A stretch of 63,702 bases of DNA, the filler included, from Psammoneis japonica (lineage: Eukaryota): assembly GCA_008632985.1 (NCBI GenBank). It is 4 parts of 4 records of this genome, joined end to end, with 100 filler letters (N's around TTAATTAATTAA, not from the genome) between each part and the next. Parts side by side here need not be neighbours in the genome. Positions count along the whole stretch, not along the records: positions 20,180 to 40,391 come from QPGO01000452.1; 3 more parts are not named here. One strand, given 5' to 3'. A model generated the notes under the pieces. That model had not been told where the DNA came from. It made no database searches and saw nothing but the letters and a program-made list of their open reading frames with translations. Positions 20,080-60,707 of this stretch are shown piece by piece. The translations under genes were made by a program, and so were the position numbers. Each line of letters opens with the position of its first letter. Positions within the stretch are counted from its first letter, which is position 1.

Positions 20080-20179
20080 NNNNNNNNNNNNNNNNNNNNN
20101 NNNNNNNNNNNNNNNNNNNNNNNTTAATTAATTAANNNNNNNNNNNNNNNNNNNNNNNNNNNNNNNNNNNNNNNNNNNN
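20080..20179. other. Artificial contig spacer (N44-TTAATTAATTAA-N44)
   Basis: 100-nt N run with a six-frame stop linker, identical at three places. Confidence 0.98.
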
Positions 20180-20235
20180 ACGGTTGCACTGTCGAACAGT
20201 GCCACTCCTCTCATTGTTGCCGTGAAAAGATCAAG

Positions 20236-21535
20236 ATGTCGTCTCCAGCACAACCGGCAAAGAAGAGAAAGAAAAATGAGACCATCAAGCCAATGAGCCC
20301 GAGACTTCAGGCAGTGTTGAAGAGAACAGGTGCGCAGGCAGCGCATGGTGCATTGAAATCAGAAGTGGAGAAGGTGGCCAGAAATGATCTCTTTCCACAG
20401 GTGAAGTTTCTCAGTCCATCAGAATTGGCAAGCAATGGGAGCGTCTCAATGTTTGTCAAGAAACAGATTGCTGGTGGCAACATGGACACTTCAAATTGGT
20501 CAGGAACTTGGGAGGAATGGGCAAAAAAGGCGGTAAAAAGGCAAATTGACAATCGCAGAAACACGGTGTGTTCAGCTGTTGGGGCGGAGGCAATGGCCAG
20601 CAAGCCAAGTGACCAATGTGTGTGATTGGAGAGTTGCGCGCATCTCACAAGAAGATGACGGTGATGCTTTGTCTGTGTGGGCGTTGTCACTGAGGAAGAG
20701 GGAAAGGAAAAAGAAAAGGAACTCAAGGCGGCAGAGAGGAGGAAAAAGAGGAAAAAGTCAAGCCGTGACAAGAATGAAGAGAATGACATCCCGTTTGTGC
20801 CGACATGGGATCCGTTTGGCCTGGACACTGTCACCGGCGGTAAACGAAGGAACAAGCAGGCATGCAAGTGGTTCTGTGATCACATCCTGCCTCAAACCAA
20901 GCAAAAGCAGGCGTGGAGCAGCACCGTCAAAACTGGGAACGCACAGGTCTCACAGTTGTTTGCGGTCGGTGACGAAGCTTTGGCGCTGTCAGCCATGGAG
21001 AATTGTTGGCAGGTGTGGGCATGCAGGAACAAGGAGGAGGCGGTGGAAGAATTGGGTGAGGAAATGGAGCCCGAAGAAACAAGGCCTGCCCCTCAAGCAC
21101 ATGAAGCCAAAGAAACAACGAGTGTCTTGGGGAGACGACGGAATCAATCGGTTCAACGATTCATGCAAAGAGGTGACGAAAGACAGAGACTCCAAGGAGG
21201 GCAAGGAGTTTGAAAAGTGGCATGTGGAGATCAAGAAAAGCGAGCACAAGAAGTCCGGAGAAGCAAAAAAGAAGAAAAAGAAAGCACCGACCGGTGATGC
21301 GGATGAGGTGAAGGCAATGAACAGCCCAATGGTGGAGAGCAACAGGGACGACAACAGCAACGACAATGAGCAGGAGGAAGGCGCAAAAGGCAAAACGGAC
21401 AATGGAGGAGACGAGTCTGATGGAGACAAGTCCGATGATGATCGCTGGCTCAGTTTAAGAGAGTTGCAGCAAGAAAATGTGTGCACAGTTAACACAGCAC
21501 TCGGTCATTGCACTGCAGATGTAAAAAGGGATTGA
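20236..21535 (+). pseudogene. Decayed two-exon gene of unknown function; inferred intron 20600-20680, frameshift near 21090
   Basis: Protein-like ORFs 20236..20625 and 20677..21213 join in frame across an 81-nt intron-like gap. Motifs include LFPQVKF, W..(K/R)..IDNRRN, GDEALAL..MEN.W, WGDDGINRFN..KEV..DR and an acidic tail. Confidence 0.6.
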
Positions 21536-22944
21536 CTTAACCGATGAAATGCTTTTCTCATTTAAAACAATGTTTGCAAAAATTGACAAACCAAAGATTG
21601 TGTGGAAATGCAACCACGCATTGGCATGTGGCAACAAGGTGGAGGCAGATGTGGTGATGTGGGTGCAGTGAAAAACAGCATGCACAATTCTCAACAAGTT
21701 GTTGCAACATTGGTGTGGCAAACTTGCAACCAGAGGTTGGCCTTTCATCATGTGACAACAATGTTTTGCAACATTTTGACAAATTGTCATCATGCAAATC
21801 TACACATTTTCAACATTTCGTGCACTCTGATGCTCGCCTCACCTTTTGTGCTCTTGTCCTCCGCTGATTTCAGTTGGCACCAACTCACAACTGATCACTT
21901 TGGCTTCTCTTGCCACTCCTCCACTCCTTCTCAATGAGCCGCTCAAACTCTTGGCTGCAACATTGTCCATCACTCATCCGCCCACGCTCTCCGCTTCCTT
22001 TCCAACCTTCACACTGATGCATCTCCCATCCCTTCTTCGAAATGCCCTTTGCACTGTCTCGCGTGCCCCTTCTTTGCACCCGCCCCTGCAGCTCTGCAGC
22101 TCTCCACCGTGCCCACTCCCGGCTTGGGAGGTCTGCAATTGGTGCGGGAAGAAGAGGAAGAGAAAGAGCTCCGTGCCGGCCCATCCTCTTGCTGCTTTCC
22201 ATTCCTTTGCTGATTTTGCTCTTTGGCTTTCTGCTTAAAACAAAAAGCCGCCGCACCGGCTGGCCACACTGTAAAAAAGCACGGCGCTCACTGGCCTCGT
22301 GGAGACCGACAAGGGGAGATGACCTCATTGCCCGTTGATGACGCACTTGGAAATCACCCCCCGCATCTGCCACATTGAACGCATTCAAGTTGGCGTTTGG
22401 AAGCGAGCTGCTGTTGCTCATTCTTCCGAAGAGCTTTAGCAGCAAGCCAAACAGACAGTCTAAAAGCGCCATTGTGTTCGGCGGAGGATGCCATCCGCCG
22501 CTGCACCCACGAGGCTCGCAGGACAGTCACACATTGTGAACCAAGACGGAAATGTCAGAAATGATCCACTGCCGGATGCCGCTGCGGCGGCACAACAACC
22601 CCAACAACTGATTCCGGCGGCCAACAATGCCCAGAACGTGCCGCCAGCACCGGTGCATCCTGTGGCGCTGGCAGCACCAGGAGCAGTGGCACAACCTGCC
22701 GCAGCGCAGGGAGGACAAGCCCCGGGAGGGGCTCCCCAACAGCCGGCACCTCAAGTGCCACCCGTCCCGCCAGCAGGTCCCGTGGGGCAGGGAGCTCCAG
22801 TGCCACCAGCAGCAATCCGGGCCTGTTGGGATTGCTGCTCACATGCCACAAAGGATCCGTGCGCCGGCAACCATGCGGAAATCATGCAGGACTTCATGGT
22901 CCCACTGCAAGGGCAATCCCGCTGCAGTCCCAACGTGTTGAGGA

Positions 22945-37592: not shown

Positions 37593-40391
37593 ATGCTTCA
37601 TTGGGTGGAGGCGAAAAACAAGCCTCTGCGCGTTCTCCTCGACAGCGGAACATCGTCAACCATAATTTTGCGCAAATTCACGCGGAAACTCAGAACAAAA
37701 GCATCCGCCACCAAACTCTGGGAAACCAAAGGAGGGCTCTTCACGACTGACAGTCGATGTAAGATCCAATTCTCCTCACCCGAATTTGACAAACACAAGA
37801 TGATTGAAACAACGGCACATGTTGACAACTCCCCTTCTTCTTCGAGTCGTTGTGACATGATCATGGGACGCGACTTAATGTCAAGTCTGGGACAATGTGG
37901 ACTTCTCGAATGAAGAGATTAAATGGGAAGATGCAACTGCTCCCATGAAGAATGTTGATGCACTCTTCGATGCCAATGTTTTTAAGTTGATTGCCGATCA
38001 CATTGAGGAATCTCATGCAGTGATTGGTCTTAATGACAGGGTCAATCGGATCCTTGACTCAGACTGTCACGCTGCAAACCTCAACAATGTGACCGCAGCA
38101 GCCACTCATCTAACCCCTGAAGAGCAGAAGCAGCTGAACTTCCTCTTAAAAAGATTTGAAAACCTTTTCGATGGTTCCCCAGGCAAATGGACCGGGAAAC
38201 CGGTGGATTTAAAGTTGAAATCGGGCGTGAGTCTGCATCATGCCAAACCATTTCCCATGCCACAAGCCTTGGAGATGACTGCTCGTAAGGAGGTTGAAAG
38301 ACTGTGCAAGTTGAAGGTCTCAAGAAAAACAAATTGTTCTGAATGGGCGGCTCCAACCTTTGTTCAACCCAAGAAAAACAGCAGAGTTCGGTTCTTGTCC
38401 GACTTTCGTGAGCTGAACAAGAGGTTAATTCGCACTCCGTTTCCTCTGCCCAATGTTCAGGATGTGCTACAGAAGCTCGAAGGCTTCATGCATGCAACGT
38501 CCCTAGATTTAAACATGGGACACTGTCACATCGAATTGACGCCGCACGCACGTCGCTTGTGCACGATCGTCATGCCTTGGGGCAAACATGAGCACTGTAG
38601 ACTCCCGATGGGAATCTGTGGAGCTCCAGACATTTTCCAAGAGCACATGAGTGAGCTCATGGCAGGTCTGGAGTTCGTCAGAACTTGTGTTGACGACACA
38701 TTGTGTCCTGCAAAAGGTGATTTTCAAGACCACCTCAAGAAGCTTGAAACGGTGTTCTCACGCCTGGAACAAGCCGGATTGAAGGTCAACGCCGAGAAGT
38801 CCTTTTTCGCTAAACCCAAAGTAGACTGTCCAGGCTTTCATGTCACCCGCAAGGGCATCAGCCCGATTCCAAAAAAAGCAGAAGCGATTCGCGCGATCGC
38901 AACTCCCAAAACTCGCAAGGAATTGCGACGCTTCATCGGTGTGATCAACTGCTGTCGAGACATGTGGCCTCGACGATCTCATGTTTTAGCTCCTTTAGCC
39001 AAACTCACTTCTACCCAAGTAAAGTGGCAATGGACCGAAACAGAACAAAAAGCCTTCGAAAATATGAAGCGCATCATCTCCAAAGACATGCTGTTGTCAT
39101 ACCCGAATTTTAACATACCCTTTGAGATATGTGCCGATGCTAGTAATTCTCAATTGGGGGCGGTTATTACTCAGAAAAACCGACCAATTGCCTTCTACAG
39201 CCGCAAGCTGAATGGAGCGCAGACGCGTCATGCTACAACGGAAAAAGAACTATTGTCCATAGTGGAGACGTTAAAAGAGTTCCGCAATATACTGTTTGGC
39301 CAACAGATAAATATATATACGGATCACAAAAATCTCACACACAAAAATTTCACAACGGACAGAGTCATGCGTTGGCGTCTAATGATAGAAGAATACAGTC
39401 CCAAAATAATATACCTTGAGGGCAAGGCAAATGTTGTCGCAGATGCGATTAGCCGACTTACTATGAAGAAAATAGAACCTATGGAAACCCTCAGCACAGA
39501 AGAGCTAGCTGAAAAGGTCCCACCAAAATCCTGCGACAATGTCTTTCCGTTAAATTACAAAGTTCTTGATTATGAACAAAAACGGGACAAAGACATTCTC
39601 TCCCAATTGTCGAATAAGACGTTTCATACGAAGACTTTCGTGGAGGCGAGCGAGACCGGTTGCTCACATGTCATAAGGATAAAATTGTCGTCCCGAGGAC
39701 GTTACAAAAGGCAGTGATAGATTGGTGTCATACGCACCTTCTCACCCTGGCATAAATCGAACAGAAGAAACAATCTCACAACACCTGTGGTGGTCCACCT
39801 TGCGTGAAGACATACGAAAATACGTGTCGAGATGTGAGACGTGCCANAAAATTCAAAAAGAAACACAAGAAATGTGGACATTTACCTCCTAAGTGCGCAG
39901 AATCCGCACCGTGGGAATGACCATGTGTGACCTTATTGGCCATACAAAATACGTCGTAAGGGAAAGAAAAAACCCCCAGTCCTGAAATGTTTGACCATGA
40001 TCGATCCAGCAACCGGATGGTTTGAAGTTGTGGAAATCCCAAATGAGGAGTCCACAACTGCAGCTGGACTGCTAGAACGAACATGGTCAAGCAGACATCC
40101 TTGGCCATCGTTGGTCACATGTGACCGTGGAAGTGAGTTCATCGGACACCAATTTAGAGAAATGGTGCAAGATGATCATGGCATTAAAGTCAAGCCCACA
40201 ACTGCACAAAATCCACAAGCAAATGCAATTGTTGAATGCGTGCATCAAGCACTGGGGAACATGCTCCGTACATTTGATTTGCAACATGCACCTCTGGACA
40301 CTGAGGATCCTTTCGCTGGAACACTGTCAGCGGCAGCGTTTTGCGTGCGGTGCGTTCTGCGCATCACATGGAACCACAACCAGTGCGCAAG
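37593..40391 (+). pseudogene. pol: Gypsy-1 pol (PR-RT-RH-IN), frameshifted
   Basis: ORFs 37593..37913, 37897..39717 and 39991..40391. Confidence 0.9.
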
Positions 40392-40491
40392 NNNNNNNNN
40401 NNNNNNNNNNNNNNNNNNNNNNNNNNNNNNNNNNNTTAATTAATTAANNNNNNNNNNNNNNNNNNNNNNNNNNNNNNNNNNNNNNNNNNNN
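40392..40491. other. Artificial contig spacer
   Basis: N44-TTAATTAATTAA-N44. Confidence 0.98.
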
Positions 40492-46552: not shown

Positions 46553-47629
46553 ATGTTGGTGGGACCGACAAATCTCAAAACGACCATGAAGAAGCGGATT
46601 AAGCCGCCGATTCCGTTCGCACGGCCGGAGAAGAAAGAGCTGCAGCAGGGCAAGTGCCAGACGTTCAAAATGCGCAACAACCCCACTGATCCGGACAGTC
46701 CAACGCACGAGATGGGCATCCTGCACCTTTCTACGGCTACATGCGAGACACTCCCAATCTTTCTACGCAACGTGGATCGCGTGCACGAAGGACAAAACAT
46801 GACAACCGGGCCAGCGAAATTTGCCCTCATGCGAGACCTGCTGCAGGGCGATGCTCTGACGTCATTTGACAATGCTGCTGACATGCAGGCATCCGAAACC
46901 AATGCTGCACACGCAGTGTGCATGGCGAAGCTAAAGGAAAGTGTCTTCCCACATGGGGCGGCGCTGTTGCAGAAGCGTTGTCTGAGGCGCTTCATGTGCA
47001 AACCCGCAGAGGTTTCCACTCGTGACTGCATCGCAAAGGCTGTTGAAATTAACGGCTGTGTCTCTCAGTTTCCACCCGTGACGGAGGATGGAGCAGCACC
47101 GGCACCATCACCTGATAACGAACTATGTGACATGTTCGAGTGCGGTGTGCCGAACGCATGGCAGAAGTTCATAACGTTACAGAATTTTGACCCGTTGGCG
47201 CATGCCATCGCCGAATTTGTACAGTTCTGCGAGCGCATCGAGCAGGTCGAGCTTGCCGAAGGTAACCTGGACCAACACACTGAGGTTCCACGTAAGCGGG
47301 GACGTACAACGGACAATCCTGAGTCGTTGATCACGAACCAATGGAACACCCAGAAGTTGTGTATGTCACACGGGACTAACTGTGGACATCATACGGAGGA
47401 TTGCCGTCAGCTCAAGCACCACGTGAAACGTGTCAAGACTGGCCATTCCAATGACGGAGGCAGCAAGCCTAACAAAAAACATCGGAATGAGGAAGACATT
47501 GACACTCTCATCGGATCGAAGGTCGAGGAGTTCTTTGCCAACGCTCAGAAAAAGCACAAGGCATGCGAGGAGGAGCTTAATCACTTCCGCGACCTCAACT
47601 TAAGTGATTCCGAAGATTCGGACGCCTGA
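46553..47629 (+). CDS. gag: Gypsy-2 gag (open, hypermutated)
   Basis: LLQGDAL, QKRCLRR, CMSHGTNCGHHTEDC knuckle. Confidence 0.85.
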   Translation: MLVGPTNLKTTMKKRIKPPIPFARPEKKELQQGKCQTFKMRNNPTDPDSPTHEMGILHLSTATCETLPIFLRNVDRVHEGQNMTTGPAKFALMRDLLQGDALTSFDNAADMQASETNAAHAVCMAKLKESVFPHGAALLQKRCLRRFMCKPAEVSTRDCIAKAVEINGCVSQFPPVTEDGAAPAPSPDNELCDMFECGVPNAWQKFITLQNFDPLAHAIAEFVQFCERIEQVELAEGNLDQHTEVPRKRGRTTDNPESLITNQWNTQKLCMSHGTNCGHHTEDCRQLKHHVKRVKTGHSNDGGSKPNKKHRNEEDIDTLIGSKVEEFFANAQKKHKACEEELNHFRDLNLSDSEDSDA

Positions 47630-47665
47630 GAAGGGGGCCGACACGACACAGGCAGTTTTAATGCA

Positions 47666-50600
47666 TTGGATGAATGTATAAATGAACAACTGAATTACCA
47701 TCGTACACGTGTTGTAGGCCAATCCCGTAAACGAGTTAAAAAGACTCATCTTACTCCAATCTTGTTTATGGCTATGAACACTAAACATGGCAAGGGCAAG
47801 ACTCAAACCATTAAGGCACTGCTAGATAGTGGCGCCAGCAGTACTCTACTCGATAGTCGATACTGTAAGCGTCTGCGAAGCCGTTCAACGGCTGAGACAA
47901 ACTGGACTACGGTAGCAGGCTCGTTCAGTACGTCTAACGACTGTACCGTTAAATCTCGGTTACCAGAATTATCCGAAACTGCAGAACTTAAACATACCGT
48001 CCACGTACACAACGGAAAGTTGGGCAAGTACGATATGATTATTGGACGTGACATTCTGGAGACACAAGGCATTGACATTGTCTTCTCTAAACAGATGATA
48101 GAGTGGCTATTAGTCAATGGAGAAGTACCAATGAGGCACGTAGATGCTACGGTGGAAACCTCCTTCTATCTTCAAGATCCAGAACACTTATCTTCGGAAA
48201 CCGACCGGATTTCACGTATTTTAGACGCTAAGTACGCGCCGGCCTGCCTCGAGGACATAACGCGAGCGGCAATAGGAATTTCTACAGTTCAACAAAACGA
48301 CCTTTTGGCACTATTGAAACGCCATGAGTCCTTATTTGATGGGACATTGGGAGAATGGAAGGGAGAACCCTACCATATCCAACTCAAGGAGGGTGTAGAA
48401 CCACACCACGCTCGTCCGTATAAAGTACCTCGTGCGTACGAAGCTACGCTACGTAAAGAAGTAGAACGCCCAGTGCGTGTCGGTGTTCTCAAACGCGTCA
48501 ACCGATCCCAATGGGCAGCTCCATCATTTATCATGCCGAAGAAAGACTCAACGGTGCGCTTTATTAATGATTTCAGAGAGCTGAATAAACGGATCAAGCG
48601 ATTGCCTTATCCGATTCCTCATGTCCAAGACATGCTGCTCAAGCTCGAAGGCTTTGTGTGGGCTGCATCTCTGGATTTAAATGTGGGCCATTGTCACATC
48701 CGATTGGATGCTGACAGCAAGAAGCTCTGCACGCTCATCTTCCCGTGGGGCAAGCATGAGATGCAGGCATTGCCCATGGGGCCATGCAATTCGCCAGACA
48801 TTTTCCAAGAACGCATGTCAGGCTTGTTTGAAGATCTGTCGTTCGTTCGAACGCACTTAGATGACCTTCTCGTCATGACGAAAGGCACCTGTGAAGATCA
48901 CCTCAACAAACTTGAAGAAGTTTTATTGAGGGTCCAGAAAGCAGGACTAAAAGCCAACGCAACTAAATCTCACTTCTGTCAAACCCAATTAGAACACTTG
49001 GGTTGTCTGGTCAACAGAGACAGAACGCGACCAACACCTGATAAAGTCGACGCCATCAAGCGAATCACGACCCCAACCAACAAACGCGACCTGCGGTCAT
49101 TTGTTGGTGTGGTGAACTGCTGCTGCGACACGTGGATTAGACGTTCTGAAGTCTTGGCTCCGCTAACACGACTCGCAAGCGAGACTGTTAAGTGGGAGTG
49201 GACGTCCGTTGAAGACGAGGCGTTCAAAACCGTTAAACGGGTGATGTCGGATGATGTTTTGTTGTCACATCCTGATTTTAACAAACCCTTTGAGATGCAT
49301 GCCGATGCCTCAAAACATCAATTTGGAGCAGTTACATCCCAAGACAATAAACCCATCGCCTTTTGCAGCAGAAAGCTTCGCAGTGTGCAATTAAATCACA
49401 CAACAACGGAGAGAGAATTGCTCGCCATTGTGGAGACGTTGAAAGAATTTCGAACGATTCTCCTTGGTCATCGTGTGGTTGCACATGCTGATCATAAAAC
49501 TCTTGCGTGCAAAGCATTCAATGCCGAGCGCGTTATGCGCTGGCGGTCAACATGCGAAGAATGCGGTCCCGAATTATGCCATGTCAAGGGTGCCCACAAC
49601 CTGGTCGCTGACGCTCTTAGTCACCTTTGGCCAGCACCCAGCTTGCCTTCCGAGGCCAATCCAGATGTAAAAGACACTCCATCGAGTCGTCCTTTGCATG
49701 AAGCTTTTAATGCAGACACGCAAAACGATGTCTCTCTGCCTGTTAGCTTCAAGCGCATTCAAACAGAACAACAAAAGGACAAGCGCCTGCTCTCCCGAGC
49801 TGAGGACTCATCCAACCACTCCATTCGCGCGCATCGTGGGGGAGGGTCATCACGACAGTTAATCTGTCATAAGGACAAAATCGCAGCACCACAGTCATTG
49901 CAGGTTCCGCTAACTGAATGGTGCCACGAGACACTGTGTCATCCAGGTGAGACACGTGCGGAAATGTCCATTGCGCAGCACTTCTGCTGGCCTGGCATGA
50001 GGTCTACGGTGCATTCTACATGCGTTAAGTGCAATCGATGCCAGAAGACAAAACGCCGAATGCAGCATCATGGAAAGCTGCCAGAAAAGGTCGCTGAGAT
50101 AATTCCATGGGAGACTCTGTGCATGGACATGACAGGGCCACACAAAATTCAAAGACGCGGAAAGGACACTTTGCAATCATGGGCAGTCACAATGATCGAC
50201 CCAGCAACCGGGTGGTTCGAGATTAAAGAAGTGTCTGCGAAACGCGCAGACGTCGTAGCAAACGTCGTTGAACAAACGTGGCCATGCAGACATCCGTGGC
50301 CAACCCAGGTGGTTTATGACCGTGGGACAGAATTTATGGCAGAATTTAGCCAGATGATCAAGGGGGACCGCCGACCTATTTTTTCCGCGTTTGTCCTAAA
50401 ATTAGCAATGTGTTTGAATGCGTTTATTCACAATTGTCAATTTTAAATGCAAGAATTGTTCCATCGCCCACGAAAACGAGAACATCAGGCACCGCGATCG
50501 AAGCACGACGATGACGGCAATTACGCTATCTCTCAAAATTGGCCCAGTGGCACGAGGGACGAAAGCACATAAATCAATCTGCACCACACGACGACAATGA

Positions 50601-60607: not shown

Positions 60608-60707
60608 NNNNNNNNNNNNNNNNNNNNNNNNNNNNNNNNNNNNNNNNNNNNTTAATTAATTAANNNNNNNNNNNNNNNNNNNNNNNNNNNNNNNNNNNNN
60701 NNNNNNN
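60608..60707. other. Artificial contig spacer
   Basis: N44-TTAATTAATTAA-N44. Confidence 0.98.

Follow-up and report, generated by a model that had tools for sequence, protein, structure and literature searches.

Probable TpA loss at the splice sites of a likely intron in a PlavakaB-type DNA transposon of Psammoneis japonica

Hypermutation at TpA was described in 2026 in Bigelowiella natans, where A>G and T>C changes occur on both strands and at the DNA level (bioRxiv 10.64898/2026.01.13.699255). According to the same preprint, new mutations were measured in two integrated viral regions of this chlorarachniophyte, DDE endonuclease and reverse-transcriptase domains are over-represented among TpA-poor coding sequences, and an ADAT2-like deaminase is proposed. 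The process found here in Psammoneis japonica is alike in that TpA is turned into TpG and CpA on both strands, and in that mobile regions are affected while host genes are spared, apart from a spill-over into flanking DNA. It differs in that the organism is a probable diatom, as judged by 24 silicon-transporter matches in its genome, the mutation is near-saturating and affects both class I and class II transposons, and the changes are read from paralogs and alleles. The damage to splice sites and the spill-over into flanks that are reported here are not described in the abstract, Results or Discussion of the Bigelowiella work.

In fungi, repeat-induced point mutation (RIP) depends on homology sensing, the sexual cycle and RID/DIM-2. 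It also leaks as a gradient about 1 kb into adjoining single-copy DNA, according to the account in PMC2973834. The likeness to the process described here lies in dinucleotide-specific transitions that wreck repeats after insertion and in the leak into adjacent DNA, which is seen here in one allele pair. However, RIP changes C to T and creates TA, whereas the process here removes TA; because RIP changes C, the process is not RIP. A further difference is that unmutated duplicates exist in the genome, namely silicon transporter genes, lectin-like genes and half of one retrotransposon.

APOBEC/ADAR editing of retroelements acts on RNA or cDNA and leaves a bias towards one strand. It resembles the present case as a context-specific hypermutation of the deamination type directed at mobile sequences, but here both strands and the flanks of integrated copies are mutated.

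The intron considered here is in itself ordinary, and the process that altered it is a variant of the TpA hypermutation described in 2026. Very probably it is a real phase-1 intron of a PlavakaB-type element, the ends of which were changed after insertion by a chromosomal mutator that turns TpA into TpG or CpA on either strand, likely via adenine deamination. No report of a TA-stripping mutator in diatoms was found in the literature searched, a search with subscription journals mostly outside its coverage. The features are listed below in coordinates of the window, that is, the whole stretch of DNA analysed (63,702 nucleotides, filler included).

20180-21832, plus strand: visible right-hand part of the transposon; the transposase-bearing left part falls into the assembly gap 20080-20179 and is missing.
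20236-20599, plus strand: first exon of the accessory gene, ending in phase 1; its length is 364 nt in 19 of 30 copies, this one included.
20600-20680, plus strand: putative intron of spliceosomal type, 81 nt; all 30 copies, as well as a 74%-identical subfamily, have it at this length and place.
20600-20605, plus strand: donor GCAAGC, probably a former GTAAG with T>C, which is A>G as seen on the minus strand.
20623-20625, plus strand: in-frame TGA within the intron, ending the unspliced product after 129 codons; in 30 of 30 aligned copies (by eye).
20644-20648, plus strand: CTCAC, possible branch point, 33 nt upstream of the acceptor; in 30 of 30 copies, absent from the sister subfamily.
20678-20680, plus strand: acceptor TGG, probably derived from a presumed TAG by A>G on the plus strand.
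20681-21535, plus strand: exon 2 of the accessory gene, with an extra base near 21096 in the window copy.
20697-20698, plus strand: nearest downstream in-frame AG as read from the sequence; its use would remove 99 nt.
21818-21832, plus strand: right terminal inverted repeat, ending TGATG.
21833-21834, plus strand: CT, which likely forms the right half of a target duplication of 2 bp, since CT is found on both sides of the C84 copy, with a common flank.

Judged by its sequence, the gene with the intron is an accessory ORF at the right end of a 7-8 kb cut-and-paste DNA transposon of PlavakaB type. The P. japonica genome has more than 100 copies; of 145 candidates from a search within the genome, 40 were scored, at 93-100% identity. 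Similarity to most of 29 other loci (91-98%) stops at about 21832, and the flanks beyond are unrelated. In the 16 copies that were read over 10 kb the element measures 6.8-8.3 kb, opens with CATCAGAGTG and closes with CACTCTGATG; CATCA..TGATG is present at both ends in 15 of them, the right end being cut in the remaining one, and 12 have a 2-bp target duplication. CATCA..TGATG ends together with 2-3 bp duplications are the marks of PlavakaB (CMCT clade) in PMC12730594, and a possible Plavaka-like transposase with a C(2)C motif would be a further likeness. The elements of that account are described from fungi. The present one comes from a probable diatom, has an accessory gene that is unnamed and contains an intron, and gave no TET/JBP match in Pfam. 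The minus-strand ORF of the main subfamily resembles PF18759 (Plavaka) at E 2.1e-4 and 9.3e-4, under the 26.3-bit cut-off, and a protein search with the mutated transposase ORF gave no match. When the inferred TA sites are restored by script, the transposase becomes one frame of 1093 codons with 3.2% tyrosine, within which CRFC and H..H-type strings are found, possible counterparts of the C(2)C and H(3-4)H motifs that lie between the catalytic residues.

A host gene is ruled out by the copy number and the terminal repeats, and a Helitron or a retroposed copy by the terminal repeats plus target duplication. The initial annotation took the locus to show that genes outside retroelements are also hit; this is so, but the gene belongs to a cut-and-paste DNA transposon and not to the host. 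A second subfamily (L041-L045, L049, L050) has both ends and the accessory gene in common with the main one and a different interior, where plus-strand ORFs without Pfam match replace the transposase. Two copies lacking a target duplication (L043 and L049) have a short inverted echo of the terminal repeat after the right end, possibly from hairpin repair.

TA is scarce in the whole window, with O/E 0.17, and TG/CA is in excess with O/E 1.56. The element has a TA O/E of 0.04-0.10, against 0.43-0.67 in nine host loci, some of them overlapping; one host locus shows ordinary GT..AG introns by eye. The spacer TTAATTAATTAA between N runs at the first gap (20124-20135) is an assembly linker and adds false TA counts; an identical arrangement of N runs recurs at the gaps near 40436-40447 and 60652-60663. 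Two other parts of the window stand out. Between 8001 and 20079 both CpG (O/E 0.05-0.21) and TA (0.01-0.10) are nearly lost, as in an older or methylated block, while the retroelements further right keep CpG. At 39001-40000 and 47001-49000 there are TA islands (O/E 0.63-0.70) within Gypsy-type reverse-transcriptase regions, resembling the half-mutated element of contig C295 that is described below.

The copies of the transposon allow the changes to be counted site by site. An alignment of 28 copies leaves out L025 and L030, which are split by insertions; for the layout of mutations the near-duplicates L002 and L020 were also left out, giving 26 copies, and L012 was dropped as well from the comparison with the sister subfamily. 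At 70 TA-type sites in the 26 copies there are 784 TG, 804 CA, 190 TA, 9 CG and 33 other states, although absolute mutation rates are inflated because TA-type sites were chosen by their variation. The dominant change is A:T to G:C at TpA. None of the 26 copies has a strand bias at p<0.05, the pairwise agreement between copies is the same as in permuted columns (0.608 in both, one duplicate pair apart), and neighbouring TA-type sites are uncorrelated; this layout points to independent outcomes in each copy and rules out processive one-strand tracts. Over 241 sites in 10 full-length copies, TA retention is only 5-20% in each region, ends and intron included. Small strand skews are seen in two regions, with TG fractions of 0.454 (p 0.013) and 0.429 (p 0.042), and the strand that reads TAY is mutated more often than the other. 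Outside TA, the A>G rates against the sister subfamily are 0.024 for CA, 0.013 for AA and 0.008 for GA, where CA>CG may include mis-polarised CpG sites.

The process that removes TA is likely a host defence against mobile DNA. In the mechanism that we propose, each copy would land in, or create, a silenced chromosomal domain of several kb, and a host process would mark such domains of silenced mobile elements. TA sites would then be converted singly, on either strand and over many cell divisions, until 80-95% are lost, with splice sites, tyrosine codons and element ends all mutated alike. In the window copy the donor would have been changed via the minus strand and the acceptor via the plus strand.

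As to the chemistry, we lean slightly towards a TadA/ADAT-like enzyme that would deaminate A to inosine while the DNA is transiently single-stranded. Adenine deamination is favoured because the order of A>G rates outside TA (CA, AA, GA) resembles the preference of an engineered TadA variant, which in the account of PMC12528748 prefers YA, with YAY above YAR. Deaminase searches of the genome gave five MafB19-deam matches and four A_deamin matches at two loci; all are ordinary-looking and no unusual deaminase gene stood out among them. TadA/ADAT2-like deaminase ORFs with an HAE motif, also of ordinary appearance, are found at L113 (G000:C38) and L117 (G000:C26).

Another chemistry acting on DNA is possible, though less probable, for example an error-prone polymerase that places G opposite T at TA, or a mispairing modified thymine, in silenced domains. 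Sequence cannot separate A>G on one strand from T>C on the other, the absence of runs along a strand gives a processive deaminase no support, and the deaminase matches are all unexceptional. A polymerase of the eta type, whose signature is the WA motif, would put AA above CA, whereas here AA does not exceed CA, with the reservation on CA>CG given above.

The intron was called in the initial annotation from two ORFs, beginning at 20236 and 20677, that join in frame as M-A-S-V-V after removal of 20600-20680. This was reproduced: excision of the 81 nt gives ...EAMA-S-VVTEEEG... in frame with the ATG at 20236. The start GCAAGC, the CTCAC motif and the end TGTGTGG are likewise all present. Shifting the cut by up to 2 bases around 20600/20680 leaves the product unchanged, and the boundaries were set at these bases because paralogs carry GT and AG at exactly those positions. 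From the appearance of the ends alone the call is weak, because the window holds 141 GYAAGY motifs and 377 pairs of GYAAGY with TGG, CAG or TAG at a distance of 60-120. Every one of the 30 copies has a segment of this length at this place, and so does the 74%-identical subfamily, where it ends in CAG. Divergence from this sister subfamily leaves 60/81 in the intron and 164/200 and 145/200 in the exons, so that the intron is not clearly more diverged. The reading of CTCAC as a branch-like motif is compatible with its presence in all 30 copies and remains unproven, since the sister subfamily has not kept it.

Relatives of the encoded protein agree with removal of the segment. A profile of exon 2 found 209 relatives, and a profile of exon 1 matches 10 of the 150 listed exon-2 relatives, all of them long proteins in which both halves are present. 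The spliced product would be collinear with these relatives, at 401-412 aa in 6 of 30 copies. In P0044, P0074 and P0123 the two halves are joined without an insert, and eight others have extra residues there (by eye), as expected if a gene caller read through the intron. The two closest relatives have A-R-K-Y...I-A-G and L-I-G at the boundaries, compatible with GTAAG..CAG and ATAG by back-translation only, the introns of relatives being deduced solely from protein sequence, as metagenome scans returned no locus.

It is very unlikely that the 81 bases belong to a coding sequence interrupted by a premature stop and are no intron at all. The length is divisible by three and there is a single in-frame stop, but this stop is found in all 30 copies, relatives occur both without an insert and with extra residues at this place, and sister copies have GT and AG at the exact ends.

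U2-type signals, a GT donor and a YAG acceptor, are present in the family, where 4 of 30 copies have GT..AG at both ends, and absent from the window copy. Both splice sites had been described as apparently destroyed. The word suits the TGG acceptor more than the donor, as splicing can make use of GC donors. With the splice sites mutated like all other sites, the accessory gene of the window copy would lose correct splicing, and a complete loss of splicing is likely. Downstream, an out-of-frame AG at 20693-20694 precedes the in-frame one at 20697-20698. The window copy also has a frameshift near 21096, besides the altered donor and acceptor, and its spliced frame would close at 21213 to give 298 aa. 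Among the contigs of the DNA run X1 none joins the exons directly and none is listed at the acceptor, which says nothing either way on splicing.

The clearest view of the process comes from a filled and an empty site. Contigs C295 and C26 appear to be allelic, 99.5-99.6% alike outside the affected stretch. On C295 (G000:C295:14520-22450; L155, L153) an LTR retrotransposon of 6.5 kb is inserted between the halves of a 4-bp target duplication, and C26 (G000:C26:347500-353300; L154, L156) has the empty site. To the left of the insertion TA is kept at 74 of 74 sites. To the right, 46 of 59 TA sites are converted within 1.44 kb and 2 of 17 beyond (p 1e-6), after which 61 of 61 are kept. Of 60 mismatches in the right flank, 48 are TA to CA (30) or TG (18) with no reverse change, and CpG is kept at 177 of 182 sites. 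This flank contains a lectin-like gene remnant and short tandem repeats; it is non-mobile and a low-copy duplicate, hence not strictly single-copy. The mutated tract starts abruptly in mid-element near C295:17000, where the TA O/E drops from about 0.7-1.1 to 0.03-0.4 halfway through the retrotransposon, and continues through the right LTR into the flank, leaving the left half untouched. The sharp left edge could be due to recombination or to a merged assembly. In this allele pair the mutated domain is mismatched to the ends of the retrotransposon, and this spill-over into flanking DNA is the main addition to what is known of TpA hypermutation.

Flanking DNA never undergoes reverse transcription, so the mutation was made in place on chromosomal DNA and not via RNA. 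This bears on the explanation that A-to-I editing of RNA was written back to DNA by reverse transcription, which is highly improbable. Retroelements package unspliced RNA, and for this reason the retention of the intron, which had been put forward as an argument against reverse transcription, cannot exclude it alone. The conclusion itself holds, since reverse transcription is excluded by terminal repeats with target duplications together with the filled/empty allele pair, which also support the DNA-level origin proposed from the start. RNA editing would yield A>G, ADAR-type enzymes prefer U before A (Mettrop et al., bioRxiv 10.64898/2026.01.13.699255), retroelements are abundant in the window and there are the two A_deamin-family loci. 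Against this, the copies carry both terminal repeats, target duplications and the intron, the strands are equally affected in every copy, element ends included, and in the retrotransposon with mutated flanking DNA TA is lost in one LTR only (16 of 30 in the right, none in the left). The allele pair has already largely refuted this route.

TA-free margins of 0.4-1.1 kb are also found to the left of four Plavaka copies, and three such flanks have a single match in the genome. Another such margin was rejected as spill-over; it is a low-copy repeat whose paralogs are TA-free too. Among 70 open frames in the TA-free flanks no credible Pfam match was found, and one Atlas search gave nothing useful. 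On contig G000:C31 (L033:1775-2374 and L124:101-1150) a Plavaka copy lies between host genes, and both flanks have a single genome match: on the left TA is absent over 553 bp, a stretch that stops about 60 bp short of a release-factor-2-like ORF, while on the right it is nearly absent over 1050 bp. These flanks may be host DNA or an old repeat.

The splice sites of the intron are found in several states among the copies. The donor is GTAAG in 7, GCAAG in 19, GTGAG in 2 and ACAAG in 2 of 30 copies, a set that contains three near-duplicate pairs. That GCAAG is far commoner than GTGAG is in keeping with a stronger targeting of TA-pyrimidine. The acceptor is TGG in 19, CAG in 10 and CTG in 1. These states, together with the balance of TG and CA over all TA-type sites (784:804), support the suggestion that each end lies one TA change from canonical, on opposite strands. 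TAG was found in none of 108 general-pattern matches in the genome, among which TGG accounts for 35; as none of the copies retains it, we infer TAG as the ancestral acceptor. Its absence is accounted for by the ATAG context, in which TA is retained in 1 of 182 cells. At ATAG sites overall CAG exceeds TGG (233 vs 170), yet at the intron acceptor this is reversed. When TA and CG columns are excluded from the tree of copies, 8 changes are needed in the TGG/CAG state, against 7.8 with shuffled labels, and each state has therefore arisen repeatedly from a shared precursor. The best match in the genome to an unmutated relative is another mutated subfamily.

An internally deleted derivative of the element occurs in several copies per contig (L061, L072, L074, L075, L085-L092; contigs C7, C52, C56, C204, C212, C306, C351, C414, C458). 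In 16 of its 17 introns the same mutated acceptor pattern ending in CAG is found, so this derivative likely spread after mutation; its donor varies (4 GT, 13 GC). The window copy (20180-22400) and the C84 copy (L002/L046) have right flanks that are 97.6% alike, and differ at TA and CG in both directions, so that both probably kept mutating after separation. The TA differences in both directions suggest continued activity.

It is extremely doubtful that the TG or CA at the acceptor arose by CpG decay of an ancestral CG, or by neutral decay, instead of from TA. Such decay is active here, as 496 of 1794 cells at 69 CG-type sites are TG or CA, and no copy has TAG. But CG-type sites retain CG in a median of 73% of copies and never in fewer than 31%, whereas CG is found at the acceptor in none of 28 copies, which makes a CG ancestor unlikely; at the lowest retention the chance of this is 3e-5 if copies are independent. 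Nor is CG seen by eye at the acceptor in any of the 100 genome matches listed, the near-complete loss of TA at ATAG explains why TAG is missing, and the donor is still TA in 7 of 30 copies. A sequencing or assembly artefact is most improbable, for although the sole run containing the stretch may be the source of the assembly itself, host loci of the same assembly retain TA and canonical introns, and contigs of run X1 carry the same variants, such as T at 20601 in 6 contigs.

The locus points to in-place removal of TA from transposons by a mutator in a major algal group, and to a natural DNA adenine-editing activity. Such a process would account for transposon ORFs that are poor in tyrosine and open in frame, and so mislead gene prediction, and it could disable host genes and promoters that adjoin new insertions. 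Splice sites are a cheap read-out of it, because sister copies with GT..CAG, GC..CAG and GC..TGG coexist in one genome. There is perhaps an even chance that diatoms have a RIP-like defence of opposite chemistry, in which a DNA adenine mutator marks multi-kb domains wherever a mobile element lies, removes TpA from both strands, so that GT-A donors, TAG acceptors and tyrosine codons are lost, and spreads more than 1 kb into host DNA. Together with Bigelowiella, this would make it a defence that distant algal lineages have in common, with a natural DNA adenine deaminase as its enzyme.
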